NCBI GenBank assembly: GCA_016203455.1
Contig: JACQMR010000015.1
Coordinates: 137 to 64,136 of the forward strand
Length of the DNA stretch: 64,000 nt
Direction: 5' to 3'
Source: Candidatus Wildermuthbacteria bacterium
Lineage (GTDB): Bacteria > Patescibacteriota > Minisyncoccia > Minisyncoccales > UBA10102
The number at the start of each line of letters is the position of its first letter. Positions within the stretch are counted from its first letter, which is position 1. The notes under the pieces are model-generated. The model was not told where the DNA came from. It ran no database searches and saw only the letters and a program-made list of their open reading frames with translations. The translations under genes were made by a program, and so were the position numbers. Shown here one piece after another: positions 5,685 to 40,324 of this stretch.

Positions 5685-6131
5685 ATGGCAAAAGAAAGAT
5701 TTAAAATAACACCTGCGGTATACTTGGTGTTAATCAAAGAAAATGAAATTCTTCTTTCCAAAAGATATAACACAGGATATTTTGACGGGTATTACAGTTT
5801 TCCGGCAGGACATCTTGATGGCGGTGAAACACTCACGCAAGCCATGGTGAGGGAAGCAAAAGAAGAAGCGGGGATTGATATTACGCCAGAAAACTTACGC
5901 CTTGTTCATACTATGAACAAATTAGTCCCGGGCAACGAACGGATTGATTTCTTTTTTACAACCGAAAAATGGCGAGGCGAACCAAAAAACATGGAACCGG
6001 AAAAGTGCAGTGATCTTAGCTGGTTTGGCCTCAACACCCTGCCCGAAAACATTATTCCCTACATACAACAGGCGATTGACTGCGTTATGAAAAACATACC
6101 ATACAGCGAACGGGAAGGTACGGAGCAATAA
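5685..6131 (+). CDS. NUDIX hydrolase
   Basis: Nudix box GHLDGGETLTQAMVREAKEEAGI. Confidence 0.85.
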   Translation: MAKERFKITPAVYLVLIKENEILLSKRYNTGYFDGYYSFPAGHLDGGETLTQAMVREAKEEAGIDITPENLRLVHTMNKLVPGNERIDFFFTTEKWRGEPKNMEPEKCSDLSWFGLNTLPENIIPYIQQAIDCVMKNIPYSEREGTEQ

Positions 6132-18204: not shown

Positions 18205-18747
18205 ATGAAGAGAAACATCCAGACAAAATTACTACAAGTCAAGCCATTTCAAGAAACCCTCCGCGGCGGTTATTGCGGACCTGCAAGCTTAAAGATTGTG
18301 CTGGACTACTATGGGATGCGGAAAAGCGAAAAAGAAATCGCAAATCGTTGCGGACGAAATTCTAAACTTGGCACGGATGATATTTCGATCAAACGAGTCG
18401 CTGAATCTTACGGCCTAAAAGCAGAAATCAAGAACGAAGCAACCTTTGCCGACATTGAAAAATGGCTTACCAGAGGAATACCCGTTATCGTCAACTGGTT
18501 TACTCGCGGCCGATCCGACTATTCTGATTCAGAGATTGCAGACGGCCATTATTCAATTGTCATGGGATTAGATAAAAGCAACATTTATCTTCAAGATCCA
18601 GAAATTGGCGCCATGCGCGCGATCAAAAGAAATGATTTCTTGAGTGTTTGGTTTGATTTCAGAAAAGATTACATTACCTCATGGAAGGATATGATCCTTC
18701 GCCAGATAATCGCCGTATATCCCAAAACACACAAAGGAAAGAGATAG
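18205..18747 (+). CDS. C39-like (papain-fold) cysteine peptidase domain protein
   Basis: GYCGPASLKIVLDYYG (Cys), DGHYSIVMGLD (His), YLQDP (Asp). Confidence 0.7.
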   Translation: MKRNIQTKLLQVKPFQETLRGGYCGPASLKIVLDYYGMRKSEKEIANRCGRNSKLGTDDISIKRVAESYGLKAEIKNEATFADIEKWLTRGIPVIVNWFTRGRSDYSDSEIADGHYSIVMGLDKSNIYLQDPEIGAMRAIKRNDFLSVWFDFRKDYITSWKDMILRQIIAVYPKTHKGKR

Positions 18748-19155: not shown

Positions 19156-19246
19156 GGGAAGCGTGCGTGTTTCACTGACGCGCACGCTTCCCTCCACAAT
19201 TCAGCTCTTCAGGAATGAAGGGCTGAACAGTGGAAAGTCCTTTCAA
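19156..19246 (+). repeat. 91-bp double-hairpin direct repeat, copy 1
   Basis: Hairpin A has a 14-bp stem 19156-19169/19179-19192 and loop TTTCACTGA. Hairpin B is 19194-19233 with a GGAA loop. 80 of 91 positions match copy 2 in my ungapped hand alignment. Confidence 0.85.
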
Positions 19247-19405
19247 ATATTCTTTCCTTCGGATGCAGAGTTCATACATTTATTTGTGGATTTTGTACCC
19301 GGAGGAAAGCTAATCTGTACGGGTCTGTGCGGTAAAATTTTAATGCCGCATAGCTGGCCTACAAGGCCACCAGCGAAAACTGGAACAGAACCTAGGAGGT
19401 TCAAA

Positions 19406-19978
19406 ATGGCCAATCAGTTTAAAGTTAATTTTCCGTTTCATATTCGTATGGGAGCAAATGTGGCGTACGCCGTCGCCGAGGAGGTCGCAGGCTCCCGCCC
19501 CGATCTCTTGTCTATTGGTGGGGAAATCCCCACCTTCAGGTTCCAAGGGGGGGTGGTGGTCAAGGTATACATGGTTAACCTTGACCAGTTCACGGAGTCC
19601 TGGCGGACTCCTCACAGTAAGGATTTCGTAGTAACGCACTGCGAAGTGCGTTACTATCCCCGCTGGGTAGCGGGGTACCCCGATGGGAACAAAGTCTCGG
19701 AGGTCTGGGGAGCCGAAAAGCTCCTCGATCTGAAGACTCGGCGGCAGTGGCATGATCCTCGGGTGGTCCATATCGCATCGATTAAGGGGAGCGTCGGCGT
19801 GTTTATCAACGCTGCCGCCGACACTGGATACATCTCGGTTGACCCCGAGAAGAACCAGGATGGTTATTCCATCCTGTATGACAAAGTAGAATACGCTCGG
19901 TTCGTCGAGGGTGACCTCGACAGGGCTAAGGAAGAGGCCCAAAAGCTACTTGACGGTCATTTGACCGTCAACGGTTAG
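19406..19978 (+). CDS. orphan hypothetical protein (190 aa), GC-rich relative to flanks
   Basis: AGGAGG RBS 7 nt before ATG 19406; no recognisable domain; the ORF-track start at 19163 runs through the non-coding hairpin repeat. Confidence 0.6.
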   Translation: MANQFKVNFPFHIRMGANVAYAVAEEVAGSRPDLLSIGGEIPTFRFQGGVVVKVYMVNLDQFTESWRTPHSKDFVVTHCEVRYYPRWVAGYPDGNKVSEVWGAEKLLDLKTRRQWHDPRVVHIASIKGSVGVFINAAADTGYISVDPEKNQDGYSILYDKVEYARFVEGDLDRAKEEAQKLLDGHLTVNG

Positions 19979-20228: not shown

Positions 20229-21521
20229 TTATTTGCCTTTTCTAGAGGCAAGATACGCGCCGTTTAGTATGACGCCCTCTATAGATCGGATATGTGAAAT
20301 ATTTTTTAGCGGGTTCTTGCCAAGAAGCGCGAGATTCGCGATTTTCCCTTCTTGAATCGTTCCTAAATCAGAAAGCGCGTCAAGAAATAACGCCGCGTTA
20401 TATGTTGCCGCCTCCAATGCTTGATGCGGCTGCAATCCGGAATCAACAAGAAGTTCTAACTCCTCAAAGAGCGAAACGCCGGGAATGACAAACGGATTTG
20501 GAGTGTCAGACCCCGCGAGAATAATGCTGTGTTTCCAGAGAAACGGAAGAATGCGGCGAACGCGTTCGCTCACAACGCCTGAATTTTTAAAATAGAGAGG
20601 CGGCAGACCCTTAATATACGCTAAACTTTGAGAATGATTCGGGCTCCACTCAACATTTCTGTAATGGTCAGGGAGAAGAGCCGCTTCCTTGCTGTGCCGG
20701 AGTTTGGAATAATCGGCGAGCTGGGACAGTTTTTTATCCACGACAAGAGTGGGGCATAAAAACACCCGTCTTTTCTTGAGCGACAAACCCAATTCCTTTA
20801 CCTTGGCTCTGTCTATTTTCACATCAATAAATCTCCTATATTCAGGATAATTTTTCAAACGAGCGTCTACGGCAATAAGACGGCCCATGATGTGCGCGCT
20901 CACATCGGACATATGCTCAAACCCGTCCTGGCCCATTTCCACGGCTTTTTTAATGCCTACGGATTCCGGAATATGCCCTGTTACCTTGAGACCTTGCGCA
21001 TGAGCTTCTCTAAGAATAGCCGCGTGCACTTCCGGTTTAAGCGTATGATACACCTTAATAAAATCCGCCCCTTGACGCTTTAACTCCTTTACGGCAGATA
21101 CGCCTTCTTTTTTATTCTTTACCACGCGAAACCCCTTCCACAACGGGGGGTCGCCTTCCAAAATCGGGCCCGCGATAAACACGCGGGGACCAAGAATTTT
21201 CCCCGCGTTTATTTGATTTCTCCACAAAAATATCTCTTTTTTGGAATTTCCCATTTCTCTAATGGCGGTAACGCCGCATTGAAGAAAAAGAGAAAGAAAA
21301 TCTTTTGACTCCAGATGCGCGTGCATGTCAAAAAGACCGGGAATAAGAAACTTTCCCGTTCCGTTAATAACGCGGCCCGCGAATTTTTCATTCTTTTGAT
21401 CTCTTGAAGGAAAAATCTTTGTTACGCGCGCTCCCTCAATCAAAACATCATACCCGCGCAATACGCGGGGACCCGGCATCGGGATGATATTCACATGCTT
21501 AATAAGAATAGATGATGTCAT
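20229..21521 (-). CDS. amidohydrolase family metallo-hydrolase
   Basis: GLFDMHAHL (HxH), later His/Asp ligands (TGHIPE, GFEHM, AGSDTP) typical of the amidohydrolase superfamily. Confidence 0.85.
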   Translation of the reverse strand: MTSSILIKHVNIIPMPGPRVLRGYDVLIEGARVTKIFPSRDQKNEKFAGRVINGTGKFLIPGLFDMHAHLESKDFLSLFLQCGVTAIREMGNSKKEIFLWRNQINAGKILGPRVFIAGPILEGDPPLWKGFRVVKNKKEGVSAVKELKRQGADFIKVYHTLKPEVHAAILREAHAQGLKVTGHIPESVGIKKAVEMGQDGFEHMSDVSAHIMGRLIAVDARLKNYPEYRRFIDVKIDRAKVKELGLSLKKRRVFLCPTLVVDKKLSQLADYSKLRHSKEAALLPDHYRNVEWSPNHSQSLAYIKGLPPLYFKNSGVVSERVRRILPFLWKHSIILAGSDTPNPFVIPGVSLFEELELLVDSGLQPHQALEAATYNAALFLDALSDLGTIQEGKIANLALLGKNPLKNISHIRSIEGVILNGAYLASRKGK

Positions 21522-21623: not shown

Positions 21624-21884
21624 GTGACCCTTTTCATTATTATCCTCATCATCATTGGAGTTGCCGCGGCAACATGGTATCTGGCAAAAGGCAGAAAACA
21701 TGAAAATCTGCCCGTGGCGTATACATCTCACCTGCCGCAACATAGTCAAAGCAGGCCCGCTACGCCCGAAGAAAGACCGGTTCCTCCTTTGGCGCAAGAA
21801 TCGCAAAGCGCGACTCCGCCGCCCCCTCCGTTCAGGCCAAATCCTCCCCAGCCGCCGCAAAATCCTCCTTCCAGCGCTATATAA
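21624..21884 (+). CDS. small membrane-anchored proline-rich protein (86 aa, GTG start)
   Basis: N-terminal TM helix LFIIILIIIGVAAATWYL followed by a P/Q-rich tail; its 3' end is duplicated at 18824-18872. Confidence 0.4.
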   Translation: MTLFIIILIIIGVAAATWYLAKGRKHENLPVAYTSHLPQHSQSRPATPEERPVPPLAQESQSATPPPPPFRPNPPQPPQNPPSSAI

Positions 21885-21993: not shown

Positions 21994-23550
21994 ATGAAAT
22001 CCTCACTCACGCTTGACGGCAACAATCTCACCATTGAGACCATAGATACATTCTCCCGCAACACGGAAATATCAGTGGATATTGCTCCGTCCGCACTCCT
22101 TAAGGTTCAAAACTCAAGAGAATTCCTGGAAAAAGAAGTGCAAAGAAGCATCGTGTACGGAGCCAACACCGGCTTTGGCCCCATGGCTTCCAATATCATC
22201 AACCACACCCAGCTTACGCTCCTGCAAGCAAACCTCATTCGTAGCCATGCCGTGGGAATAGGCGATCCATTGCCCGAAACATATGTCCTTGCGGCAATGC
22301 TTGTGCGGCTTAATACGCTCCTAAAAGGATACTCCGGAGTATCTCCGGAACTTATCCGCCACCTCCAAACTTTTATCAACAAACGAATCTTGCCCATCAT
22401 ACCGGAACATGGAGCGGTCGGAACGAGCGGGGATCTTGTCCAGCTTGCACATATCGCGCTTGCACTCACAGGAGAAGGAGAGGTCATGTATAGAAAGAAA
22501 AGGCGTAAGAGCGTTGCGGTATTAAAAGAATGCGGCATCTCTCCCTATGCCCTCAAACCCAAAGAGGGACTCTCACTCATCAATGGGACATCCGCAATGA
22601 CCGGCATTGGAGCTCTTTTGTGCGCCCGCGCCGAACACATTCTCTCTTTCGCGATACGCTTTGGAGCGTTATCACTTGAGCTTGTTCACGCCTTTGACGA
22701 TAGCATATCGGAACATCTTCATAACACGCGCCCTCACAAGGGGCAGATTGAAGTAGCGCGCCGCTTGCGCTCCCTCCTGGAATCTTCCCGGATGCTTAAA
22801 AAAAGGGACGAACTGCGCCAACCCTCTGAAAACGGAGCGGATGTGGTGCATATCTCTGAAACCGTGCAAGAATTCTACTCCCTACGATGCATCCCCCAAG
22901 TACTCGGCCCTGTACTAGACACGCTTGCCAACACAAAAAATATCCTAGAAACGGAGATGAATTCGGCGAGCGATAATCCCATCGTAGATACCGAACACAA
23001 GCTGATTCTCCACGGGGGAAACTTCCACGGGGATTATGTCGCTTCGGCCGTGGATCAACTAAAAATTGCTCTTGTGAAACTGGGTATGTTGTCAGAGCGA
23101 AGAACCAATTTTTTTCTAAATCATGAAATCAATAAGTTTTTCCCTCCGTTCATGAACCTGCGAACCCCAGGGCTCACGCTCGGACTCCAAGGACTGCAAT
23201 TCGTAGCAACTTCTACCGCGGCGCAAAACCAAACTCTCGCGTTCCCTCATTACATACATTCCATCCCCACAAACGGAGATAATCAAGATATCGTAAGCAT
23301 GGGTACGGACGCGGCTTTGTTCGCCACAAAAGTAGCAAACAATGTGAACATCATCCTTGCCGTGGAATTAATCACGCTGGCTCAAGCCGTACACTTTAGC
23401 AACAACCCGTCCGAACTCTCTGATTCTTCCCAAAAACTTATTCAACAGATAACCGAAATCTTTCCACCAATTATAGAAGACAGAACACTCGTGGATCAAC
23501 TACCCAAAGTTGTCGCTTTCATTCAAGATGAAAAGAAAGGCAATGTATAG
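21994..23550 (+). CDS. aromatic amino acid ammonia-lyase/aminomutase family (HAL/PAL/TAL, MIO-dependent)
   Basis: GAVGTSGDLVQLAH (MIO triad is Thr-Ser-Gly here), YGANTGFG, SLINGT, NFHGDY, QDIVSMG. Confidence 0.85.
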   Translation: MKSSLTLDGNNLTIETIDTFSRNTEISVDIAPSALLKVQNSREFLEKEVQRSIVYGANTGFGPMASNIINHTQLTLLQANLIRSHAVGIGDPLPETYVLAAMLVRLNTLLKGYSGVSPELIRHLQTFINKRILPIIPEHGAVGTSGDLVQLAHIALALTGEGEVMYRKKRRKSVAVLKECGISPYALKPKEGLSLINGTSAMTGIGALLCARAEHILSFAIRFGALSLELVHAFDDSISEHLHNTRPHKGQIEVARRLRSLLESSRMLKKRDELRQPSENGADVVHISETVQEFYSLRCIPQVLGPVLDTLANTKNILETEMNSASDNPIVDTEHKLILHGGNFHGDYVASAVDQLKIALVKLGMLSERRTNFFLNHEINKFFPPFMNLRTPGLTLGLQGLQFVATSTAAQNQTLAFPHYIHSIPTNGDNQDIVSMGTDAALFATKVANNVNIILAVELITLAQAVHFSNNPSELSDSSQKLIQQITEIFPPIIEDRTLVDQLPKVVAFIQDEKKGNV

Positions 23551-23562
23551 TATGTTGTACTT

Positions 23563-24591
23563 ATGCTTACCGGTCCTCAATTTTTTCAAAAAGAAGAAAA
23601 TATCCCTCGTGGAGCGCGCATTATAGACAAATTCGCGGATGCCACTCAAGAACTCTTTATTATTGAACGCTCCGAGCTCAAGCACTCTTTTTCAAGGGAA
23701 ACCCCCGCGTTCCAAAATTTCTTACACGAACGAGAACAGCAAGCACTATGGGTCTACTATCCATGGAACAACACGGCGATTCGCATATATCCGGAACAAG
23801 AGTACTGTAAAATACGCACCGCGCGAAACAGAAACATCATCACGAAAGAAGAGCAGGAACGATATAGAAATACCAGCGTTGGCATAGCCGGGCTTTCCGT
23901 TGGCTCCGCTGTTCTTTCCGCCTTAACCATGACCGGAGGCCCCAGGTGTCTCAAGATAGCCGATTTTGACACCCTAGAACTTTCTAATCTCAATCGCATC
24001 AAAGCGACGCTTCTTGACCTCGGCGCGAAAAAAACCGATATTGCGGCAAAAAATACATGGGAAATTTATCCCTTCGCAAATATTTCCTTGTTTGAAACGG
24101 GGTTGAACGAACAAAATCTAGAGGAGTTCCTCCGGGGAAATCCCAAACTGGATGTTTTTATTGATGAAATGGATAATATCTCAATGAAGATACGAGTCCG
24201 ACGATCCTGCAGAACACATCGCATTCCCGTTATTATGGTAACCGACAACGGCAATGGAGTTATTTTAGACATTGAGCGATTTGACGCAGAACCCGAACGA
24301 CCGCTACTCCACGGCATCATGGAAGACATGGACCCTGAAACCATAGAACATCTGGACTTCCAGAATTGGACCAAGGTCGCCAATAAAATCGTGGGATCAG
24401 AATCCCTAAGCGAACGCATGCTTCAATCTATCCAAGCCATTGGCACCTCCCTCTCTGGCATACCCCAGCTGGGAACCAGTGCGTCTGTAGGAGGAGCAGT
24501 TGCCGCATTCTCCGTACGCGCCATTGCCAACAACCTGCCCATGCCGTCTGGAAGATACCATATTAACTTTGAAACATTGTTTTTAGCATGA
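23563..24591 (+). CDS. ThiF/MoeB/E1-like adenylyltransferase superfamily protein
   Basis: VGIAGLSVGSAV...LKIADFDTLELSNLNRI...DVFIDEMDN, Rossmann-like E1 core; ATGA overlap with next ORF. Confidence 0.7.
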   Translation: MLTGPQFFQKEENIPRGARIIDKFADATQELFIIERSELKHSFSRETPAFQNFLHEREQQALWVYYPWNNTAIRIYPEQEYCKIRTARNRNIITKEEQERYRNTSVGIAGLSVGSAVLSALTMTGGPRCLKIADFDTLELSNLNRIKATLLDLGAKKTDIAAKNTWEIYPFANISLFETGLNEQNLEEFLRGNPKLDVFIDEMDNISMKIRVRRSCRTHRIPVIMVTDNGNGVILDIERFDAEPERPLLHGIMEDMDPETIEHLDFQNWTKVANKIVGSESLSERMLQSIQAIGTSLSGIPQLGTSASVGGAVAAFSVRAIANNLPMPSGRYHINFETLFLA

Positions 24592-26027
24592 TACCCGGCT
24601 TTCAAAAAGCTTTAGAAATATTTCGAAGTGCAAGCGAACGCGTCCCCGCGTACGGCATGCTGTTGAAACATGGAGGGATAAACCCTCGCGCGGTGCGGGG
24701 AATCAAGGACTTTAAAACACTCCCGATTATAGAAAAGAAAACATACATATACCGATACCCCTTAAACGATCTGTTCCCCGAAAGAAAAATCCCTTCCATG
24801 GGATACGCGAGTTCCGGATCTTCCGGAAAACCCACACTATGGTTTCTTGACGACATCCAGGAACAACAAGGAGGGGACCTCCACGAACGCATCTTTCGGG
24901 ATATATTTAAAATACAAAAAAAAGATACAACGCTCATGATCGTATGCTTTGCCATGGGCATATGGATCGCGGGAATATATACTCTCGCTTCATGCAGAAA
25001 TGTCGCAAGAAAAGGGTATGCCCTTACCACAATAACCCCGGGCATAGAACAAAAAGACATTCTGCGTATTCTCAAAGACCTCGCCCCCCGCTTCAAACAC
25101 ACGATCATAGCTGGATACCCTCCGTTCCTCATGAATGTGTTCTCCGAAATGAAAAAGAAACAAATCCCCGCTCCCAAAAACATACGAGTCCTCACGGCGG
25201 GGGACAAGTTTTCAGAAACATGGCGAAAAGATGTGGCGACACTCCTTGGCATGCGTACGCCGGACGAATCCATCATCAACATATACGGGTGCGCGGACGC
25301 CGGCATGCTGGGGTTTGAAACTCCTCTCTCCATATTCTTGCGGAAAAAATCGGAGAGCGTGCCGGGGCTTTCTCGAGATTTATTTGGAACAGTCAAAAAT
25401 CTGCCTGGCATCTTTCAATACAATCCTAACCATGTGTTCTTTGAAGAACACGAGCAAGAACTCCTGTTGACTGTTTCAACATCCGCGCCGCTCGTACGCT
25501 ACAACATCCACGATATTGGAAATGTTTTCCCGCATAAAACCATGCGAACATTCTTAAAAACCCATGCGCTAGAAAAAGAAACGGAGGCGCACGGACTCTC
25601 GCAATGGACATGGCCTTTTGTAACGGTCAAAGGTAGAACCGATGTCGCGGTAACTTTTTACGCCCTCAACATCTATCCCGAACACATTAAACAGGGACTT
25701 GAAGACGCAAGAATTTCACGGTTCCTTTCGGGAAATTATTTTGCCCACAATCAAACCACAAACCACAGTAAAACGCAGACACTGCATATTGATGTTGAGC
25801 TTGCTCCGGGCGTTCGTCCAACGAAAACCATTTCACAAAATGTCCGTACCGCGGTAAGCGAATGCCTTCTGCGGGTCAATATGGAATTCCACAAGCTCCA
25901 TTCAATTTTGGGCGGAAAAGCCCTCCCACTTATCGCCCTAAAACAATACGGTGAAACGAATTTTCACAACAGCGACTCAAAAGGTATACTGAATATACAA
26001 GGAAAGAAACCAAAAATGTCCTCATAA
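24588..26027 (+). CDS. PaaK/GH3-like adenylate-forming enzyme
   Basis: YASSGSSGKPTLWF adenylation motif, TAGDKFSE, YGCADAG, VRYNIHDIG. Confidence 0.65.
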   Translation: MIPGFQKALEIFRSASERVPAYGMLLKHGGINPRAVRGIKDFKTLPIIEKKTYIYRYPLNDLFPERKIPSMGYASSGSSGKPTLWFLDDIQEQQGGDLHERIFRDIFKIQKKDTTLMIVCFAMGIWIAGIYTLASCRNVARKGYALTTITPGIEQKDILRILKDLAPRFKHTIIAGYPPFLMNVFSEMKKKQIPAPKNIRVLTAGDKFSETWRKDVATLLGMRTPDESIINIYGCADAGMLGFETPLSIFLRKKSESVPGLSRDLFGTVKNLPGIFQYNPNHVFFEEHEQELLLTVSTSAPLVRYNIHDIGNVFPHKTMRTFLKTHALEKETEAHGLSQWTWPFVTVKGRTDVAVTFYALNIYPEHIKQGLEDARISRFLSGNYFAHNQTTNHSKTQTLHIDVELAPGVRPTKTISQNVRTAVSECLLRVNMEFHKLHSILGGKALPLIALKQYGETNFHNSDSKGILNIQGKKPKMSS

Positions 26028-26032
26028 ACGCG

Positions 26033-27091
26033 ATGGAAGAAATAATCACAACAATACTCAAGGAAGCAAATAACGCTCCGTCCGGACACAACTACCAGCC
26101 ATGGAAATTTCGCATACAGAATTCCGCGCTCTTGATATACAATCTTCCCGAACGGGACACGACGATATATAACTTTCTCCAGCGGGGATCTCTCGTAAGC
26201 CATGGAGCTCTGATTGAAAATATTCAGATTGCGGCATCTCAACATGGCTATGCAACGACCGTACGGCTTTTCCCTGAAGGAAAAATGGGGGATTGCGTGG
26301 CTCGCGTAGAATTCCGGCATTCTCCAGAAATTTCGCAAGACAATCTTTTCAATGCCATCTGCAAACGAACCACAAACCGAAAACCTTACAAAAATATCCC
26401 GCTTCAAGAAGCGCACCGAAAAAGAATTCTGGAGGCGGGGAACCAAAACGGCAATACGACACGGCTCCGGCTCATTGAAGATCCCGCGCAAAAAAAACTT
26501 TTGGCAGACGCGTTTTCAGCAAACGAACGACTCATCATGGAAAACCGCGCGGTGCATCAATCCCTGTTCCCGCATATTATCTGGACCGAACAAGAAGAAC
26601 TCGCGCGAAGAAGCGGGCTATATGTAAAAACATTTGAACTGCCTCCTCCGGCGCGCGTTGCTTTCCGACTCTTTTCGCATTGGGGACTCGTGAATATCGT
26701 GGGCAAGCGGGGACTCTCAAAAAGCGTGGCATCACAGAACGCGAAAATATATGCTTCGTCTTCGGCAATGGGACTTATTGATATGCAAGACAACTCTCGC
26801 GAAAGCTTTGTCAACGCTGGCAGAACGCTTGAAAGAGTATGGCTTACCGCGACCGCATTGCAAATCAGTTTCCAGCCTGTAACAGCGGTTCTGTATTTGC
26901 GCCAGAGGATCGCTTCGGGAGACACCAAACAATTCTCCATGGATCACATTAACCTTGTGCAACAGGCATACGACACTATTCAGAATGTCTTTGGCGCGTC
27001 GTCTCGAGTCATGGCAATAACCTTTCGCATCGGATACGGCGGGACTCCGAGTGCATATTCTTCAAAACTTCCTCCTCATATAGAAATATGA
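26033..27091 (+). CDS. tandem nitroreductase-fold FMN oxidoreductase (Acg-like)
   Basis: APSGHNYQPWKFRI at the N-terminus, RTTNRKPY, ~350 aa two-lobed layout. Confidence 0.7.
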   Translation: MEEIITTILKEANNAPSGHNYQPWKFRIQNSALLIYNLPERDTTIYNFLQRGSLVSHGALIENIQIAASQHGYATTVRLFPEGKMGDCVARVEFRHSPEISQDNLFNAICKRTTNRKPYKNIPLQEAHRKRILEAGNQNGNTTRLRLIEDPAQKKLLADAFSANERLIMENRAVHQSLFPHIIWTEQEELARRSGLYVKTFELPPPARVAFRLFSHWGLVNIVGKRGLSKSVASQNAKIYASSSAMGLIDMQDNSRESFVNAGRTLERVWLTATALQISFQPVTAVLYLRQRIASGDTKQFSMDHINLVQQAYDTIQNVFGASSRVMAITFRIGYGGTPSAYSSKLPPHIEI

Positions 27092-27092
27092 C

Positions 27093-28715
27093 ATGAACTA
27101 TTTCTATCTCATCAACCTTGACATTCTGTGGCTTGGAATCGGGGTTGCCGCAAACGCGCTATTGGCTTTGGCCGTATTCCTGAACAACCGCCAAAACACG
27201 ACCAACCGGGCGTTTCTTTTCTTTGCCATTCTTACTATATGCTGGAGCGTCACGAACTTCCTTGTTTCTCGCTCCAGCGCACCATCAACAACTCTTTGGC
27301 TTTTGAGATTCGCCGTGTTCTTCGCGACATGGCACGCGTTTTCTTTTTTCCATCTTTTTTATGTATTTCCCAGAAATAAAATAACATATCCGCGGATGTA
27401 TGCGCTCCTTGCTATTCCGATCGTCTTAATCACATCGCTTCTCACTCTTACCCCCTTGGTATTCAAACAAATCGCGACATTTTCAAATACAGGGCAGGCC
27501 GCGAGTGCCGTAAACGGACCCGCCATTGTCTTATTTGGAGCGGTTATCGTGATGAGCATCCTGGGAGGATTGCTATTGATGATAAAAAAAATGGCGCAAG
27601 CATCAGGCATGGAAAAGCTCCAGCTCAAGTACATATTCACCGGAGCATTCATTACATTCTTACTTCTGCTGACCTTTAATTTTATTCTTCCGGCCTTTTT
27701 TAATAACGCCCGATTTGTGTCTTTTGGAGCGCTCTTTATTCTGCCTTTTGCCTTTTTCACCGCGTACGCCATCATCCGGCATCATCTGCTAAACATAAAA
27801 ATGATCGCTACCGAAATTCTCACATTCGTCCTAGCAAGCGCGAGTATCATAGAGGTAGTTGTCGCTCGAGACATAGGCACCCTTATCTTGCGAATTTCAA
27901 TATTCCTCCTTTTGTTGATTTTTGGAATCCTGCTCATCAAAAGCGTGCGCAAAGAAATAGGACAAAAAGAGGAGCTCCAGCGGGCATACGCGAAATTAAA
28001 AGAACTGGACGAAGCAAAGTCGGAGTTTGTATCCATCACTTCCCATCAACTGCGCACTCCGCTCACCGCGATTAAAGGATACATCTCCATGATTTTGGAA
28101 GAAGCGTACGGCCCTCTCGCTGAAAAACAAAAACAGCCCATGCGCAATGTGTATGAGTCAAACGAACGGCTCATTCAGCTGGTAAACGACCTCCTGGATA
28201 TTTCCCGCATTGAGTCGGGCAAAACCCGAGTGGAACTAAAAACCGGTCAGCTCTATGATGTTGTGAAAACGGCTCTGGAAGAACTCCGCATTAAAGCCAA
28301 GGACAAACGGTTAAAACTTATATTTGAAAAACCGTCTGCCGACATGCCCGAATTTCAATTTGACGCGGTAAAAATACGCAATGTTATCATGAATATCGTG
28401 GACAATGCCATTAAATACACCGGAAAGGGGAGTATACGGGTTAGCTTGGCGGTAAACAAAAACAAGATCGAGCACGCCGGCAACGCGCTTATTACCATTC
28501 AAGACACCGGAGAAGGCATGTCAAAAGAAGAAATAAACCACTTGTTTGAAAGCTTCTCTCGGGGCAACGCCGGAAACAAATTCTGGACCGAAGGTTCCGG
28601 CCTTGGTCTCTATATCGCAAAACAGTTTGTCGTAATGCACAAAGGCAGAATATGGGCGGAAAGCGAAGGCAAAGGCAAAGGGAGCGCATTTTTCGTTGAG
28701 CTTCCGCTTGTATAA
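27093..28715 (+). CDS. sensor histidine kinase with ~7-TM N-terminal domain
   Basis: HisKA SHQLRTPLTAIKGY; HATPase_c N, G1, G2 boxes (DNAIKYT, QDTGEGM, GSGLGL); starts 2 nt after the previous stop. Confidence 0.85.
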   Translation: MNYFYLINLDILWLGIGVAANALLALAVFLNNRQNTTNRAFLFFAILTICWSVTNFLVSRSSAPSTTLWLLRFAVFFATWHAFSFFHLFYVFPRNKITYPRMYALLAIPIVLITSLLTLTPLVFKQIATFSNTGQAASAVNGPAIVLFGAVIVMSILGGLLLMIKKMAQASGMEKLQLKYIFTGAFITFLLLLTFNFILPAFFNNARFVSFGALFILPFAFFTAYAIIRHHLLNIKMIATEILTFVLASASIIEVVVARDIGTLILRISIFLLLLIFGILLIKSVRKEIGQKEELQRAYAKLKELDEAKSEFVSITSHQLRTPLTAIKGYISMILEEAYGPLAEKQKQPMRNVYESNERLIQLVNDLLDISRIESGKTRVELKTGQLYDVVKTALEELRIKAKDKRLKLIFEKPSADMPEFQFDAVKIRNVIMNIVDNAIKYTGKGSIRVSLAVNKNKIEHAGNALITIQDTGEGMSKEEINHLFESFSRGNAGNKFWTEGSGLGLYIAKQFVVMHKGRIWAESEGKGKGSAFFVELPLV

Positions 28716-28794
28716 TCTTTGGTGTACTCCTTTTGATTTTGCAAGATATATGGTATCCTCTAGTATTCTAGAGGAATTATTTTACCTAAAAAAC

Positions 28795-30189
28795 ATGCAA
28801 AGAACATACACGGCAGAAACGCCAAACAAAGTAGGGGAGACCGTAAAACTGGCAGGATGGATAGACACCCGAAGAGACCACGGAAAACTCGTATTTTTGG
28901 ACTTGAGAGACAAAGAGGGAATCATGCAAATTGTTTTTACGCCCCAAGAAGCGGAGGCGCATGGGCTTGTGCAAGAGGCGCGGCCCGAATGGGTTGTTGA
29001 AATAGAAGGGGAGGTGAAAGAACGCCCGGAAAACATGAAGAACAAAGAAATTGCCACCGGGGGCGTGGAACTGCTTGCCAGAAAACTCGTCATTTTATCC
29101 CAGGCAAAAACCATGCCGTTTGACATACACGGGGACGGATACGACATAGACGAAGAAAAACGGCTTACATACCGCTATCTTGATCTGCGGAGACCTCGCA
29201 TGGCAAAAAACTTAAAAATGCGGCACCTGTGCATTCAGTTTATGCGGGATTTCCTTCTCAAAGAAGGATTCACGGAAGTTGAAACGCCGGTAATCAGCAA
29301 ATCCACGCCCGAAGGAGCACGCGATTACCTCATACCGTCTCGTCTGTACGCGGGGAAATTTTACGCCCTGCCCCAAAGCCCCCAGCAATACAAACAGCTC
29401 CTCCAGGTGGCAGGCGTTGAAAAGTATTTCCAGATTGTGCGGTGTTTCAGAGACGAAGACCCCAGAGCCGACCGCCAGCCGGAATTCACCCAGTTAGATA
29501 TTGAAATGTCGTTCGTGGAACAAGAAGATGTTTTAAACCTGATTGAGCGGCTCTACACCCAGTTGGTAGGAAAATTCTTCCCTGAAAAGCGGGTTCAAAA
29601 AAGTCCGTTTCCAAGATATGAATATAAAGATGTCATGGCAAAATACAATTCAGACAAGCCGGATCTGCGCGAGAACGCGCAAGACCCCAACGAACTTGCC
29701 TTTGCCTTTGTGGTGAACTTCCCCATGTTTGAATGGAAAGAAAAAGAAGACAGATGGGACGCGGTGCATCACCCCTTTACGCGCCCCCAAACGGAAGACC
29801 TTGAGGAAATGAAAAAGAATCCGGGAGACATTCTGGCATTCCAATACGACCTAGTGCTCAACGGATATGAAATAGCGGGAGGCAGTTTGCGCACCTACCG
29901 CCCGGACATTCTTTCGGGAGTGTTTGAACTCATGGGCAACAAAAAAGAAGACATCCAGGCAAAGTTCGGCCACCTGCTTACCGCGTTTGAATACGGCGTG
30001 CCTCCGCACGGAGGAATCGCCTCCGGCCTTGACCGGTTTTTTGCAATCTCATTTGGGGAACCCAATATCCGAGAAGTCATCCCGTTCCCCAAAACAGGGG
30101 ACGCGAGAGACCCCTTAATGGACAGCCCAAGCGAAGTTACCGGAGAACAGCTCAAAGAACTGCACTTGGAAATTACAAAGAAAAAATAA
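28795..30189 (+). CDS. aspS: aspartate--tRNA ligase (short form, no large insertion domain)
   Basis: OB-fold N-terminus, FRDEDPRADRQPEFTQLDIEMSF, GGSLR, GIASGLDR; start moved to MQRTYTAE. Confidence 0.9.
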   Translation: MQRTYTAETPNKVGETVKLAGWIDTRRDHGKLVFLDLRDKEGIMQIVFTPQEAEAHGLVQEARPEWVVEIEGEVKERPENMKNKEIATGGVELLARKLVILSQAKTMPFDIHGDGYDIDEEKRLTYRYLDLRRPRMAKNLKMRHLCIQFMRDFLLKEGFTEVETPVISKSTPEGARDYLIPSRLYAGKFYALPQSPQQYKQLLQVAGVEKYFQIVRCFRDEDPRADRQPEFTQLDIEMSFVEQEDVLNLIERLYTQLVGKFFPEKRVQKSPFPRYEYKDVMAKYNSDKPDLRENAQDPNELAFAFVVNFPMFEWKEKEDRWDAVHHPFTRPQTEDLEEMKKNPGDILAFQYDLVLNGYEIAGGSLRTYRPDILSGVFELMGNKKEDIQAKFGHLLTAFEYGVPPHGGIASGLDRFFAISFGEPNIREVIPFPKTGDARDPLMDSPSEVTGEQLKELHLEITKKK

Positions 30190-30192
30190 GCA

Positions 30193-31161
30193 ATGACAAG
30201 GAACACGCGGATATTTCTTGGAGCGTTTTTGGCCAGCATTCCGTTCTGGCTTTTTGCCAATACGGTTTCTTCCGGCGCCCAAGAACTGTTGTTCTGGAAC
30301 AACATGGCAGACACCCAGCAAGCGTCCGCGCTTTCCTCGCTGGAAGACATGAAATGGCTGGCGCGCCCGGTTATAAAACAAACCGCGCCTTCCCTGGAGC
30401 TTGCCGCGCAATCCGCCGTTTCTGTTTTGATCAAAACCACCGGTGAAGAAAAAACGCTCTTTAAAAAAAATGAGGGAGAATCCCTGCCCATTGCCTCTTT
30501 GTCAAAACTCATGACTGCTTTGGTAGCGGCGCGAACATTCAACCCGAAAGACATTATAACGATAAGCAGGGAAGCTGTGCGGGAAGAAGAAAGCTTTGGC
30601 CTGCTCAAAGCCGGAGACGCGTTTTTCGCCAAAGACCTGCTGTACCCCATGCTCATTGAATCTTCAAACGACGCGGCGGCCGCGTTTGCCCTGGAGATTG
30701 GAAAACAACCGTTCGCAGACCTCATGAACCTTGAGGCAAAACGACTTGAACTTTCTAAAACCCGTTTTACAAACTACGCGGGACTAGATCCGGATAGTCC
30801 CGAAGAACCGGTCAATCTTTCAAGCGCTTTAGATGTAGCGCGCATTGTCCGGGAATTGAAAGACCAGTATCCCGATATCTTTTCCATCTTGCGCGTCCAG
30901 GAGCTCCCGCTGTACGACAGCAGGGGTTGGTTTCATCACGACATGATAAACACCAATGAACTGCTCTCGTTTACATCGTGGCCCACGAAAGTTCTTGGAG
31001 GAAAAACCGGATGGACTCCTCTCGCGCAAGGAACCCTGGCGCTTGTTCTTGAAAGCCCCAAACAAAAAGGATACATTATCAATGTTGTCTTGGGATCGCC
31101 CGACCGATTCTCCGACATGAAACGACTGGTTAACTGGACATATAATTCGTATGCTTGGTAA
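30193..31161 (+). CDS. D-alanyl-D-alanine carboxypeptidase (S11 serine peptidase)
   Basis: SLSKLMT (SxxK), SSND (SxN), GKTGWT (KTG). Confidence 0.8.
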   Translation: MTRNTRIFLGAFLASIPFWLFANTVSSGAQELLFWNNMADTQQASALSSLEDMKWLARPVIKQTAPSLELAAQSAVSVLIKTTGEEKTLFKKNEGESLPIASLSKLMTALVAARTFNPKDIITISREAVREEESFGLLKAGDAFFAKDLLYPMLIESSNDAAAAFALEIGKQPFADLMNLEAKRLELSKTRFTNYAGLDPDSPEEPVNLSSALDVARIVRELKDQYPDIFSILRVQELPLYDSRGWFHHDMINTNELLSFTSWPTKVLGGKTGWTPLAQGTLALVLESPKQKGYIINVVLGSPDRFSDMKRLVNWTYNSYAW

Positions 31162-32270
31162 CGCGCATGATTTCTCTCCTTTCTTTCAGCATCATCAAAA
31201 TAGCCGTGATTACAGGCATGAGCTTTCTCATTGGTTTTCTCGCGACTCCCGCGCTCTTGCGCGTCATGCATAAATACAAACTCTGGCGGAAAACCGTTCG
31301 CCAAACGGCATTGGGCGGAGGGGCCCTGCCCGTGTTTCAAAAATTTCACACGGAAGGCGAAGTAAAAACCCCGCGATTCGGAGGCGTGCTCGTATGGCTT
31401 GTTCCCCCTTTGGTGGCAATAATTCTCTGGTTGCTTTCCAAAACAGGAAACCCGTGGCTGGAAGCTATGAACTTTCTCACGCGCTCTGAAACCTGGCTCC
31501 CCATGGGAACTCTCCTTGCCGCGTCTTTCGTGGGGTTTTTAGACGACATGCTCCAGGTGATCTCTGCTCCCGGCAACGCGTTTTTACGATCGCTTTGGGA
31601 AAAAACCAATAAATACATTGCCGGAGGACTTTCCCTGAAGCACCGTTTCGCGCTTGTAACCCTCATAGGACTTACGGGGGCGTGGTGGTTTTTCTACAAA
31701 CTCGGCTGGGATACGGTGCATATTCCCGGAGGAGGGGACATCGTTTTGGGCTGGCTTATTATCCCATTTTTCGTACTCGTTATGCTTGCAACCTATTCGG
31801 GAGGAGTGCTGGACGGCATAGACGGACTCGCCGGGGGATCGTTTGCCTCCATGTTTACCGCGTACGGACTCATCGCGTTTTCCCAACAACAAGTTGATCT
31901 CGCCGCATTCTGCTTTGCCATTACCGGAGCATTACTCGCGTTTCTCTGGTTCAATGTGCCTCCCGCGAAGTTTTACATGACCGAGGTTGGAACAATGGGA
32001 CTTACCGCGACTCTCACGGTCGTGGCATTCCTCACGGATGCCGTATTGGTATTGCCCATTATAGGCATACTGCTGGTTATAGAGTCGGGATCCGTCATTC
32101 TTCAGCTTCTCTCTAAAAAACTGCGCGGCGGAAAAAAGATATTCAAAGCCGCTCCTTTTCACCATCACCTTGAAGCAGGGGGCTGGCCTTTGCACACCAT
32201 TACCATGAGATTCTGGATTATAGGCATTGTGGCCGCGTTTATCGGCGTGGCAATCCAGCTACTGGGATGA
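31155..32270 (+). CDS. mraY: phospho-N-acetylmuramoyl-pentapeptide transferase
   Basis: GFLDDMLQV, DGIDGLAGG, APFHHHLE; multi-TM. Confidence 0.9.
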   Translation: MVTRMISLLSFSIIKIAVITGMSFLIGFLATPALLRVMHKYKLWRKTVRQTALGGGALPVFQKFHTEGEVKTPRFGGVLVWLVPPLVAIILWLLSKTGNPWLEAMNFLTRSETWLPMGTLLAASFVGFLDDMLQVISAPGNAFLRSLWEKTNKYIAGGLSLKHRFALVTLIGLTGAWWFFYKLGWDTVHIPGGGDIVLGWLIIPFFVLVMLATYSGGVLDGIDGLAGGSFASMFTAYGLIAFSQQQVDLAAFCFAITGALLAFLWFNVPPAKFYMTEVGTMGLTATLTVVAFLTDAVLVLPIIGILLVIESGSVILQLLSKKLRGGKKIFKAAPFHHHLEAGGWPLHTITMRFWIIGIVAAFIGVAIQLLG

Positions 32271-33679
32271 AATATTCATCCTTAAGAAAAACGCATCCGA
32301 AATTCTTTTATCATTCATGCAAAACGGAACGCGCCGGGAAAGACCTGCGGGTCAGTTTTGAATTTTCAATTCCTCCCGGGATTTCGTTTAGCCCCGCTCT
32401 TATTATACGCGACATTCCGGTAAAGCGCGTTAAAGAAATAGGGAAAGAAATACTCAACAATCTTGTGTTCAACCTCGGCTTGGTTGAAATGATCAGCTAC
32501 TGGAAAGCAACCTGCTCTCCTGAAATCGTTGTTGAGGCGGGTCCCCTGGATCAAAAACAAAAAGCGTGGTTCAAAAACCTCATTCTCAAAGGAATGGGGG
32601 AGTACTTTTACAAAAACAAAATCAATTTTACCTCCCCGAATTTTCTAAAAATCGCCTCATTAACCACCTCCTTAACCCCGTTAAGTTATCCACACCTTAA
32701 CGGGGTTAAGGAAAATCAACAAAGAACGCTGGTGCCGGTTGGCGGGGGGAAAGACGGCGCGGTCACTCTGGAACTGCTAAAAGAAACAAACATCAAGCTC
32801 CGGCCGTTTTTACTCAACCCAAAGAAAGAACAAAGAGATGTGCTTGAAGCGGCGGGCATAAAAAACCCCGTTATCGTTGAAAGAACCATAGACCCAAAAC
32901 TTTTAGAGCTGAACCGCAAAGGATATCTCAATGGGCATACGCCGTTTTCGGCGTATCTGGCGTTTCTCACAACACTCGCCGCGGCTCTCTTTGGATATAA
33001 ATATATAGCGCTCTCAAACGAAGAGAGCTCAAACGAAGGGAACCTGCGCTATCTTGGCAAAACAATCAACCACCAGTATTCCAAGACATACGAGTTTGAA
33101 GAAAACTTCCGCGAGTACTGCGAGATATATCTTTCTCCGGATATAGAATACTTCAGCTTCCTGCGGCCGCTTTCAGAACTCCAAATAGCAAAAATCTTTG
33201 CCCGGTATCCTCAATACTTTCCGGCATTTTTAAGCTGTAACACGGCCCACAAAACATACTCCGGCACAAAACACCCCGAAAGAACCTGGTGCAAAACATG
33301 CCCCAAATGCCTGTTTGTGTTTGCCATACTCTATCCTTTTGTCCCAAGCCAAACGCTTGTTGAAACATTCGGCGGAAACCTTTTTGAAAACCCCGCCCTT
33401 ATTCCTCTCATGCAAGAACTTACGGGAGAAAAGCGGTTCAAACCCTTTGAATGCGTTGGGACCGCCAAAGAAAGCATAGCGGCGTTTTTCTTAAGCGCAA
33501 AGAAAGCGGAGAGAGAAGACGGAGAATTGCCGGGGCTTCTTGTATATTTCAAAAAACGCATCCTGCCCCGCCGCAAAAACATCGCGAAAACAGCGGCGCG
33601 CATTTTATCGTCCTGGAACCGCAGACACTTCCTGCCTGCGCAATTTGAAGATATACTAAAAAAACACGCTCAATCATGA
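32267..33679 (+). CDS. dcw-cluster protein with PP-loop-like motif; possible MurL-type UDP-MurNAc-L-Ala-L-Glu epimerase (inference)
   Basis: VPVGGGKDGAV resembles the SGGxDS ATP-pyrophosphatase loop; CKTCPKC cysteine cluster; sits between mraY and murD with ATGA overlaps on both sides. Confidence 0.5.
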   Translation: MKYSSLRKTHPKFFYHSCKTERAGKDLRVSFEFSIPPGISFSPALIIRDIPVKRVKEIGKEILNNLVFNLGLVEMISYWKATCSPEIVVEAGPLDQKQKAWFKNLILKGMGEYFYKNKINFTSPNFLKIASLTTSLTPLSYPHLNGVKENQQRTLVPVGGGKDGAVTLELLKETNIKLRPFLLNPKKEQRDVLEAAGIKNPVIVERTIDPKLLELNRKGYLNGHTPFSAYLAFLTTLAAALFGYKYIALSNEESSNEGNLRYLGKTINHQYSKTYEFEENFREYCEIYLSPDIEYFSFLRPLSELQIAKIFARYPQYFPAFLSCNTAHKTYSGTKHPERTWCKTCPKCLFVFAILYPFVPSQTLVETFGGNLFENPALIPLMQELTGEKRFKPFECVGTAKESIAAFFLSAKKAEREDGELPGLLVYFKKRILPRRKNIAKTAARILSSWNRRHFLPAQFEDILKKHAQS

Positions 33680-39497: not shown

Positions 39498-40324
39498 ACA
39501 TCGTCAAGGCGTCTGGCGAACGCGAGGCATACAGCAGGGAAAAGTTTTGCGATTCCCTGAAAAACACCGGGGTTTCCGAGGATCTTGTGAACCGCGTCTG
39601 TCTTGTTGTGGAAAAACAGGTTAAAGAAGGCATGACCACGGAAGAAATTTTCCAAAAAACCGCGGCGGCTCTTTCAAAAGAAAGTCCGGCCCTCGCGGCA
39701 AGATATTCCTTAAAGCGGGGGATTATGGATTTAGGGCCTTCCGGATTCTTGTTTGAGCAATATATCGCGGCGGTATTGCGGGAGTACGGATACCAAACCA
39801 ACACAAACCAGATTATCAGAGGCGCGTGCGTTTCGCATGAAATAGACATTGAAGTCCGCGCGAAGGACGCGCATTATTTCGTGGAAGCAAAGTATCACAA
39901 CAGCAGGGGAGTGGTGTCTGACATCCAGGTTGTCATGTACATGCATGCGCGCCTCTTGGATATTACCGAATATCATGAGAAGATAGAACGAGACGCGCCG
40001 GTATCCCACAGGGCTTGGCTGATCACCAATACCAGGTTTACCGAAAAAGCAATCGCGTACGCGAAATGCAAAAACATAAGAATAACCGGGTGGCGATACC
40101 CCCGCGCGGAAGGACTGGAACGGCTTATTGAAGCGAAAGGATTATACCCCGTAACTTTACTGCCCGGGGTCAACCAATACGCCAAGGATCAATTCGCGAA
40201 ACGGGGAATCTACTTTGCAAAAGACCTGATCAATTTTTCTCCGGAAAACTTCCAGCATCTTTTCGGCATATATCAAAGGGCGGCAAAACAAATACAACAA
40301 CAAGCAAAAGAACTATGCGTGTAA
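39494..40324 (+). CDS. ATP-cone domain fused to Mrr-like PD-(D/E)xK restriction endonuclease domain
   Basis: N-terminus MNIVKASGEREAYSREKFCDSL... (ATP-cone); C-terminus HEIDIEV...YFVEAKYH (D...ExK). Confidence 0.7.
   Translation: MNIVKASGEREAYSREKFCDSLKNTGVSEDLVNRVCLVVEKQVKEGMTTEEIFQKTAAALSKESPALAARYSLKRGIMDLGPSGFLFEQYIAAVLREYGYQTNTNQIIRGACVSHEIDIEVRAKDAHYFVEAKYHNSRGVVSDIQVVMYMHARLLDITEYHEKIERDAPVSHRAWLITNTRFTEKAIAYAKCKNIRITGWRYPRAEGLERLIEAKGLYPVTLLPGVNQYAKDQFAKRGIYFAKDLINFSPENFQHLFGIYQRAAKQIQQQAKELCV

Follow-up and report, generated by a model that had tools for sequence, protein, structure and literature searches.

We describe a compact operon of five genes from a metagenome-assembled genome (MAG) of Candidatus Wildermuthbacteria, a groundwater bacterium with a tiny genome that belongs to the Patescibacteria, or Candidate Phyla Radiation (CPR). 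The operon lies at 21994-28715 of the 64,000-nt stretch of one contig analysed here, which we call the window, and encodes, on the + strand and tightly packed, a 4-methylideneimidazol-5-one (MIO) lyase, a ThiF-like enzyme, a PaaK-family ligase, a nitroreductase-fold flavoenzyme and a seven-transmembrane (7TM) histidine kinase; the five proteins are identical to NCBI MBI4138466-MBI4138470. We see an even chance that these genes specify a small-molecule pathway of the oxazolone or N-acyl-dehydro-amino-acid type that is wired to its own membrane sensor kinase. The operon appears to work like the known oxazolone systems and to derive from them, but it is not a plain member of the group, since the acyltransferase partner is absent although the ThiF-like enzyme and the flavoenzyme both match the family by sequence. 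What is new in it is a PaaK-family ligase in the place of the acyltransferase, an interchangeable deaminating module, a linked 7TM sensor kinase and a wide distribution in Patescibacteria. The features of the operon are as follows.

21994-23550, + strand: MIO aromatic amino-acid ammonia-lyase, type A, with a TSG triad (518 aa; PF00221)
23563-24591, + strand: ThiF/E1-like adenylating enzyme of the Rv1355c (TrzS)/oxazolone-cyclase clade (342 aa; NF005901)
24588-26027, + strand: PaaK-family (ANL superfamily) adenylate-forming ligase (479 aa; AlphaFold2 model and Foldseek)
26033-27091, + strand: two-lobed nitroreductase-fold flavoenzyme, Acg-like (352 aa; PRK14851, Rv1355c-family and Acg models)
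27093-28715, + strand: membrane sensor histidine kinase (540 aa; HisKA_7TM, HisKA and HATPase_c)
28756-28775, + strand: terminator-like hairpin with a T-rich tail, 40 nt past the kinase stop (pattern match from a consensus scan)

The five open reading frames (ORFs) bear out the families, coordinates and common strand given in an initial annotation made from the sequence, with family matches far beyond chance. Read from the DNA letters, in gene order, the first two genes lie 12 nt apart, the second and third overlap in ATGA, and the remaining two gaps measure 5 nt and 1 nt; the first three junctions agree with that annotation, which had put the last at 2 nt. The operon probably ends after the kinase, and the hairpin just past the kinase stop fits such an end. 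A promoter consensus scan returned sites no more frequently than in shuffled sequence, and G+C content is uniform across the operon region. For comparison, a profile of the ligase retrieved 42 genome loci, which were annotated by tblastn and by clustering of all their ORFs; 40 of these were counted as independent loci.

Enzymes of the operon

The ThiF-like protein contains the Pfam ThiF domain (E = 3e-22) and matches NF005901, the Rv1355c family, with 313 bits, the next best model scoring 77 bits. Among 72,556 plasmids, the 15 ThiF matches at E <= 1e-10 are all from Actinomycetota and most are annotated 'Rv1355c family protein'. Identity reaches 37% over 321 aa to the N-terminal half of a Rhodococcus protein named as an Rv1355c-family member by the Prokaryotic Genome Annotation Pipeline (PGAP), and this match includes the extension ahead of the Rossmann fold. 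When 34 ThiF proteins from the clusters are aligned with E. coli MoeB, the arginine finger, the G-loop, the DFD..NLNR segment, the lysine and the equivalent of Asp130 (within DEMDN) are all kept, while both CxxC zinc motifs of MoeB are absent. The Asp130 equivalent also aligns with 'EECD' of the Rhodococcus homologue. It would correspond to the aspartate whose mutation abolishes the cyclase activity of TrzS (PMC12856293), the mutated TrzS residues D217 and R540 being matched here through the Rhodococcus family member and not through M. smegmatis TrzS itself.

The scores of the ThiF-like protein against models of sulfur-carrier enzymes fall far below the cut-offs (ThiF models, 62 vs 159 and 48 vs 275 bits; MoeB, 52 vs 266 and 45 vs 377 bits), and no conserved small ORF (15-70 aa) that could be a sulfur-carrier partner occurs in the clusters or within 800 nt of them in the 40 loci. 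Together with the missing CxxC motifs, these results rule out a standard MoeB/ThiF sulfur-carrier adenylyltransferase, an alternative that the initial annotation had raised. By sequence, the ThiF-like enzyme appears instead to belong to the clade of TrzS (Rv1355c), TyzB and OxzB, and we predict that it is an ATP-dependent cyclase.

The flavoenzyme complements this assignment. It matches PRK14851 (199 bits, model 325-660 of 679), the Rv1355c-family model (187 bits) and the Acg family (172 bits, cut-off 199), as well as the Acg structure 2YMV (E = 3e-10), and its identity to the C-terminal half of the Rhodococcus protein mentioned above is 24% over 281 aa. On the 722-position Rv1355c-family model, the ThiF-like enzyme covers positions 39-338 and the flavoenzyme positions 375-712, so that the two window proteins together span nearly all of it. 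The flavin-binding motifs APSxxNxQPW and RxxxR are kept in 32 cluster homologues. Members of the nitroreductase superfamily are present in 33 of the 40 loci; in the window, one gene lies between ThiF and flavoenzyme. The flavoenzyme is predicted to be a C-alpha/C-beta desaturase, that is, a flavin-dependent oxidase.

Products of several related systems have been described. In Pseudoalteromonas rubra, the oxazolone synthetase OxzB acts together with the N-acyltransferase OxzA (bioRxiv 10.1101/2020.06.11.147165). In M. tuberculosis, the acyltransferase TyzA, the ThiF-type ATP-dependent cyclase TyzB and the flavin-dependent oxidase TyzC produce N-acyl tyrazolones (PMC10404671), and Rv1355c, now TrzS, has been shown experimentally to cyclise and then desaturate the N-acyl tryptophan supplied by TrzA (Rv1356c) (PMC12856293). 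In other phyla, clusters that combine an N-acyl amino acid synthase (NAS) with ThiF, nitroreductase and methyltransferase genes have been linked to N-acyl dehydrotyrosines, namely the stieleriacines and the thalassotalic and kyonggic acids (PMC12479983). The initial annotation had treated the pairing of ThiF and nitroreductase domains as one still lacking a function; this is outdated, since the pairing is an oxazolone synthetase in OxzB, TyzB/TyzC and TrzS.

The operon differs from each of these systems. TrzAS/OxzAB is the closest sequence family to the window ThiF-like enzyme and flavoenzyme, but its domains are fused and its partner is an acyltransferase, whereas in the window they are split and accompanied by a ligase, a lyase and a linked kinase; the trzAS locus lies near cyclic-di-GMP genes, not near a 7TM kinase. 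TyzACB resembles the operon in encoding the ThiF-like cyclase and the flavin-dependent oxidase as separate genes of a small-molecule pathway acting on an aromatic amino acid. The TyzC and TyzB genes are adjacent, however, whereas the PaaK-family ligase separates the two in the window, and TyzA uses fatty acyl-CoA to give the N-acyl amino acid, a function for which the window has no such gene; TyzACB also comes from another phylum and has neither a lyase nor a linked sensor kinase. The N-acyl dehydrotyrosine clusters share the ThiF and nitroreductase pair, optional methyltransferases and a product that may be a ring-opened dehydro-amino acid, but they use an N-acyl amino acid synthase and fatty acyl chains and have no PaaK-family ligase, lyase or kinase. 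The searchable literature gave no description of the Patescibacteria cluster or of its new features, and nothing relevant on HisKA_7TM.

The ligase has no Pfam match and scores only 62 bits against the PaaK equivalog TIGR02155 (cut-off 646). Its AlphaFold2 (AF2) model has a predicted local distance difference test (pLDDT) score of 89, and the best Foldseek matches are PaaK1/PaaK2 and BT_0428, followed by NatL2, AjiA1 and ClxA; further matches are to 2-hydroxyisobutyryl-CoA ligase and, more weakly, to GH3/JAR1. The phosphate-binding loop SSGSSGKPT and a C-terminal lysine are invariant. Sequence and predicted structure together place the ligase in the PaaK fold family, not in the PaaK equivalog. 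Its subfamily is distinct and mostly patescibacterial, with 773 clusters (50% identity) at E <= 1e-30. No paa genes were found near the operon in Pfam scans of the operon and of the scanned window ORFs.

Two groups of characterised enzymes help to frame what this ligase might do. ClxA and NatL2, both PaaK-family ligases, need no CoA to couple aryl acids to nucleophiles, and ClxA, NatL2 and AjiA1, from benzoxazole pathways, share the fold family of the window ligase and adenylate an aryl carboxylic acid before handing it to an amine or hydroxyl nucleophile en route to a heterocycle (PMC12519233, PMC7204872). Their identity to the window ligase is only 13-18% in structural alignments, however, their partner is an amidohydrolase, and their products are benzoxazoles. 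An amidohydrolase gene lies upstream of the operon (20229-21521, minus strand); as a NatAM-like partner of the ligase it was rejected, being present in no other locus. The flexirubin proteins FlxA and FlxY (NF053541, NF053551) offer a second likeness, as they pair a tyrosine ammonia-lyase (TAL) with a PaaK-like acyl-CoA ligase and the window lyase is closest to FlxA, but FlxY gives no significant match to the window ligase (27-28 bits for related fusion proteins) and there are no polyketide or fatty-acid synthase genes at the operon.

Natural gene fusions connect the ligase to the ThiF-like enzyme. We found a ThiF-PaaK protein of 880 aa, a PaaK-ThiF protein of 863 aa and a ScyB-like dehydrogenase-PaaK-ThiF protein of 1242 aa; their loci again contain the 7TM kinase, and three (L044, L045 and L046) carry the flavoenzyme too. 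On the strength of these fusions the ligase appears to be functionally tied to ThiF. No acyltransferase or GNAT-like protein was found in the operon, in 20 Pfam-scanned flanking ORFs of the window or among the families conserved in 43 loci. We predict that the ligase activates the deaminated aromatic acid and joins it to an amino acid.

The lyase is a clear member of Lyase_aromatic (PF00221, E = 3e-163) and has the Thr-Ser-Gly MIO triad that had been noticed earlier ('GAVGTSGDL'). The triad occurs in 15 of 17 aligned type A lyases, the window's included, and is a trait of the Patescibacteria type A clade. Among NCBIfam models the lyase scores 611 bits against the FlxA TAL (NF053541, cut-off 700) and 431 against Tyr 2,3-aminomutase; in the PDB, the tyrosine aminomutase SgTAM scores highest (342 bits), and the histidine ammonia-lyase (HAL) of P. 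putida reaches 256. Tyr55 and the Ser-His pair of 'LIRSHAVG' align with SgTAM Tyr63 and Ser92-His93, and 'NGDNQDIVSMG' matches SgTAM as well. His93 of SgTAM presumably contacts the phenol of tyrosine, and the NQ(E)D segment of HAL enzymes contains one additional Glu. In the plasmid collection, the closest relative is a Bacteroidota lyase (44% identity) inside an aryl-polyene/flexirubin-like cluster with FabG, ketosynthases and an acyl carrier protein (ACP); its 'RSH' and 'NQD' motifs are those of the window lyase, but its triad is ASG. The 'RSH' motif, at the His93 position, and 'NQD(I/V)VSMG' are thus common to the window lyase, the flexirubin-like-cluster lyase and SgTAM.

From the FlxA scores, the SgTAM alignment and the flexirubin-like relative, we infer that the lyase is most like the flexirubin-type tyrosine ammonia-lyases, with tyrosine as its most likely substrate. 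An ordinary hutH, which had been considered initially, does not fit: the lyase falls below both hutH cut-offs (464 vs 539 and 477 vs 524 bits) and scores higher against FlxA, and no urocanase was found among the scanned window ORFs, where the upstream amidohydrolase is a weak hutI match (38 vs 298 bits).

Related loci and the sensor kinase

With few exceptions the 40 loci come from Patescibacteria. About 37 of them contain ThiF, 33 the flavoenzyme and 32 the 7TM kinase, and in almost every case the genes share one strand, with very short gaps. Synteny of ThiF, ligase and kinase extends over some 40 genome loci of Patescibacteria, as a rule together with the flavoenzyme, and the gene set is not a peculiarity of one genome, as the initial annotation had allowed that it might be. 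One locus is labelled gammaproteobacterial, yet it has 40% G+C and Patescibacteria-like neighbours. Some loci contain accessory genes for an ABC exporter (five loci within 6 kb, nine in all), an alpha/beta-hydrolase or a PlsC-type acyltransferase, and six of the 40 encode members of two methyltransferase families, which recall the NAS-ThiF-nitroreductase-methyltransferase clusters. Apart from the receiver domain, no small conserved protein family lies beside the clusters. In the window and six other loci, the operon adjoins aspS and cell-wall genes.

Two loci from Streptomyces combine the ligase and ThiF variably with a lyase or a flavoenzyme; at 70% G+C our simple ORF calling is weak, and Pfam annotation of these two loci was uninformative. 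One of them (L035, 553-8634) holds the ligase-ThiF pair with an Acg-family flavoenzyme, an ABC exporter and an asparagine-synthase-like gene. The other (L043, 8327-12164) holds the pair with a BagA-like TAL that has a Phe-Leu selectivity motif. Neither has the 7TM kinase, and both are possible culturable entry points for the chemistry. At a further locus (L006, 2463-9136), genes for three paralogous multi-pass membrane proteins of 251-257 aa, none of which matches Pfam, are interspersed among those for ThiF, lyase and ligase. As free 7TM sensor modules these proteins were rejected, because they are missed by a hidden Markov model (HMM) of the 7TM region of the kinase.

The deaminating step varies most among the loci. 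A lyase is present in 20 of the 40 and is of two types: type A lyases are 48-59% identical to the window lyase, FlxA-like and located 5' of ThiF, and type B lyases are 31-35% identical, match no specific model and lie between ligase and flavoenzyme. In five loci a homologue of the ScyB-like tryptophan dehydrogenase (288-293 bits, cut-off 600) stands directly before the ligase instead of a lyase, and the TAL of a Streptomyces lomondensis locus is BagA-like (599 bits). Where a deaminating enzyme is present, it is always beside or fused to the ligase or ThiF. The lyase is therefore an accessory, interchangeable first step, for which two lyase types, a BagA-like TAL, a ScyB-like dehydrogenase or no enzyme at all may be found.

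The kinase, in contrast to the genes outside the cluster, is a constant companion of the enzymes. It adjoins the cluster in 32 of the 40 loci although the outer flanks vary, the genes beyond it being aspS, cysS-corA, receiver-PilB-PilC or bactofilin-DAGK depending on the locus, and it is adjacent also in all six loci reached via the ligase family (L044, L045, L046, L058, L059 and L060). We carried out a reciprocal search in which patterns from the 7TM region of five kinase sequences were scanned against metagenome contigs. This search returned nine loci; all seven with upstream DNA have the flavoenzyme gene directly upstream of the kinase, and the loci also hold ThiF and ligase wherever the contig reaches. 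More distant ligase homologues likewise precede HisKA_7TM kinases, some with an added GAF domain. The adjacency in spite of varied flanks, together with the reciprocal search, makes the kinase a dedicated, co-conserved member of the conserved core. The AF2 model of its 7TM domain has a pLDDT of only 71 and Foldseek gave weak matches to helical bundles resembling G-protein-coupled receptors (E > 0.01), from which we draw nothing.

As the initial annotation had remarked, no response regulator adjoins the kinase, and a search with receiver queries from related loci found no receiver domain in the 64-kb window. Elsewhere such partners are present: a stand-alone receiver lies beside the kinase in 10 of the 40 loci and in L060, and a receiver-PilB ATPase in four. 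In these four loci (L007, 15893-19295; L009; L010; L014) a fusion of a receiver domain to a PilB/GspE secretion ATPase, about 580 aa long, lies 3' of the kinase. It is preceded by a stand-alone receiver in three of the four and followed by a PilC-like protein in all four. This arrangement suggests that a phosphorelay controls type IV pili in these lineages.

A candidate pathway and its alternatives

We suggest the following sequence of reactions. The MIO lyase, whose family is clear from sequence, would deaminate an aromatic amino acid, most likely tyrosine, to give p-coumarate. The PaaK-family ligase would then adenylate the aryl acid and transfer it to the amino group of an amino acid, yielding an N-aroyl amino acid and thereby substituting for the N-acyl-amino-acid synthase (OxzA/TyzA/TrzA); this role is proposed because of the gene fusions, the position of the ligase in the operon and the absence of any acyltransferase. 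In the third step, by homology with TrzS, TyzB and OxzB, the ThiF-like enzyme would adenylate the carboxylate of the N-acyl amino acid, and the amide oxygen would close the ring to an oxazol-5-one. The flavoenzyme, by homology with TyzC and the C-terminal domain of TrzS, would finally desaturate the C-alpha/C-beta bond to give a conjugated arylidene-oxazolone or a ring-opened N-acyl dehydro-amino acid. In some lineages, methyltransferases, a hydrolase (possibly opening the ring) and an exporter may tailor or release the product. The initial annotation had proposed aromatic deamination, two carboxylate activations and a redox step. This proposal agrees with the scheme favoured here, while its interpretation as a whole stands in part.

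Several observations weigh against the pathway. Each catalytic step is drawn from homology or gene context. The N-acyl-amino-acid synthase that defines the known oxazolone systems is absent, with the PaaK-family ligase in its position, and N-acylation of an amino acid by a PaaK-family enzyme is not known to us from any oxazolone pathway; a CoA thioester might be all that the ligase makes. The lyase scores under every curated cut-off, so that its substrate may be Tyr, His or another, and it may act as an aminomutase; about a third of the loci, moreover, contain no deaminating enzyme that could supply the acyl donor. The flavoenzyme is only a moderate match to the Rv1355c-family model, and the arginine that aligns with position 540 of the Rhodococcus homologue is not kept in the Patescibacteria flavoenzymes. 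Two loci (L058 and L059) have no recognisable copy of the flavoenzyme, which implies that the pathway may be able to do without desaturation. The flavin-dependent oxidases known of this type consume O2, and many Patescibacteria lead an anaerobic life. Finally, the ligand assigned to the kinase is a guess.

Although the association of the kinase with the cluster is plain, what it senses is a matter of conjecture. Our guess is that it would sense the pathway product or a related ligand, in the manner of an autoinducer circuit. Its signal would pass to the stand-alone receiver in other lineages and to the adjacent receiver-PilB ATPase in four loci. The fullest form of this idea is a self-contained producer-sensor circuit, widespread among the Patescibacteria loci covered here, in which a conjugated aromatic oxazolone or its dehydro-amino-acid form is both made and detected, the latter by the dedicated 7TM kinase, and in which the kinase of some lineages acts through stand-alone receivers and receiver-PilB ATPases on type IV pili. 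We consider this full circuit distinctly unlikely, but if true, no chemical communication system would have been described in the CPR before it, and it would give bacterial oxazolones their first physiological role, that of a signal with a cognate receptor.

It is also possible, if somewhat unlikely, that the biosynthetic reading is right and that the kinase responds to an external cue such as host contact, envelope stress or the precursor acid, regulating the operon or targets elsewhere. The extra GAF domain of some kinase versions is in keeping with such a role, and so is the nature of the adjoining partners, which are stand-alone receivers and receiver-PilB ATPases, not transcription factors. 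The very tight reciprocal linkage is typical of producer-sensor pairs and to this extent speaks for a product sensor, yet it fits both readings of the kinase alike.

A different question is whether the same enzymes carry out other chemistry, in which the ligase forms an aryl-CoA or aryl-AMP and the ThiF-like enzyme and flavoenzyme then convert it, or a different carboxylate, to a product that is not an oxazolone. Such a product might be a heterocycle of another kind, a conjugate formed with a lipid or cell-wall amine through an amide or ester bond, or an activated acyl donor for onward transfer. ThiF-like enzymes produce many outcomes from one acyl-adenylate chemistry, as a review of them describes, and the absence of the defining acyltransferase, the missing or unrecognisable flavoenzyme of L058 and L059 and the occurrence in some loci of alpha/beta-hydrolase, methyltransferase and PlsC-type acyltransferase accessories are all compatible with a different product. 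So is the position of the operon beside aspS and cell-wall genes in the window and six other loci, but the outer flanks vary, and this neighbourhood is thus not conserved. Furthermore, the only close annotated relatives of the ThiF-like enzyme are Rv1355c-family proteins, and the flavoenzyme paired with it comes from the same fused family. We therefore regard other chemistry as rather unlikely and prefer the oxazolone pathway.

Modification of a peptide or protein is very improbable. In such a scheme, similar to the maturation of peptides that are made by the ribosome and modified post-translationally (RiPPs) or to ubiquitin-like systems, the ThiF-like enzyme would adenylate a C-terminus, the nitroreductase-fold protein would oxidise and the ligase would add an aromatic acyl cap. 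MccB/PaaA-type ThiF-like enzymes do act on peptide C-termini, E1-like and nitroreductase-fold pairs occur in azole-peptide pathways, and an N-terminal extension precedes the ThiF fold of the window protein. This extension, however, is common to Rv1355c-family enzymes, which act on small molecules. A search for small precursor ORFs had been proposed along with this alternative in the initial annotation, and it has left the alternative unsupported: the survey of 15-70-aa ORFs described above found none conserved in or beside the clusters, the receiver domain is the only small conserved family there, no YcaO protein is encoded, and the gaps between genes are only -4 to 12 nt.

Least probable of all is catabolism or salvage of aromatic amino acids, in which the lyase and a CoA ligase would feed metabolism, the kinase would sense the substrate, and the ThiF-like and nitroreductase-fold proteins would be unrelated neighbours; a lyase with a PaaK-like ligase does resemble the first steps of coumarate or phenylacetate utilisation, and the source annotation of the ligase is 'phenylacetate--CoA ligase family protein', but the ligase is far below the PaaK equivalog cut-off, and neither the related loci nor the part of the window that was scanned gave any paa, hut or beta-oxidation genes. 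Half of the loci, moreover, lack the lyase, while almost all have ThiF, and the fusions of ThiF to the ligase found in some of them argue strongly against catabolism.

The oxazolone reading has implications for the biology of these bacteria and for enzymology. Patescibacteria have tiny genomes and almost no biosynthesis, and for this reason a conserved specialised-metabolite pathway with its own kinase is unexpected in them. Such a pathway probably bears on how patescibacterial episymbionts perceive each other or their hosts. The authors of work on the mycobacterial pathways consider the physiological role of oxazolones a major open question (PMC12856293), and the linkage to a kinase offers a testable signal-and-receptor hypothesis for that role. 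A new enzymatic way of making N-acyl amino acids, via a PaaK-family ligase, is a further prediction from the cluster, as is a new class of aryl-substituted oxazolones of possible biocatalytic interest.

Surrounding genes

The neighbours of the operon are housekeeping genes for Mur ligases, FtsW, MurG, AspRS, GluRS and GrpE-DnaK-DnaJ. The aspartyl-tRNA synthetase encoded at 28696-30189 (+) is only about 465-497 aa long and matches the 590-position bacterial AspRS model in two stretches, a pattern expected if the bacterial insertion (GAD) domain were absent. With the listed TTG start its gene, aspS, would overlap the kinase; this start is probably wrong, and an ATG farther on, near 28795, comes after the terminator-like hairpin. 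Directly downstream, a run of cell-wall genes at 30193-33679 (+) encodes an S11 D-Ala-D-Ala carboxypeptidase, an MraY-family transferase (139 bits vs a cut-off of 192) and a homologue of the Xanthomonadales UDP-MurNAc-L-Ala-L-Glu epimerase MurL (284 bits vs a cut-off of 700), which is unusual outside Xanthomonadales.

On the 5' side, the 472-nt gap ahead of the lyase contains an 86-aa ORF (21624-21884, +) with a single predicted transmembrane helix and, after it, a proline-rich tail of low complexity; the ORF has neither a Pfam match nor a counterpart in other loci, and may not be a real gene. Further upstream lies a 180-aa, stand-alone C39-like cysteine peptidase domain of the bacteriocin-processing type (18205-18747, +) with no attached ABC transporter, followed by a 271-aa ORF with no Pfam match (19163-19978). 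A 276-aa protein at 39494-40324 (+) has an unusual architecture that joins an ATP-cone, an Mrr-type restriction-endonuclease catalytic domain and an AF1548-like C-terminal domain. At the start of the window, positions 1-6000 have a G+C content of 38-41%, compared with 46-51% elsewhere, and contain four co-directional ORFs, the first encoding a 416-aa AMP-binding (adenylate-forming) enzyme; this segment may be a separate small island.

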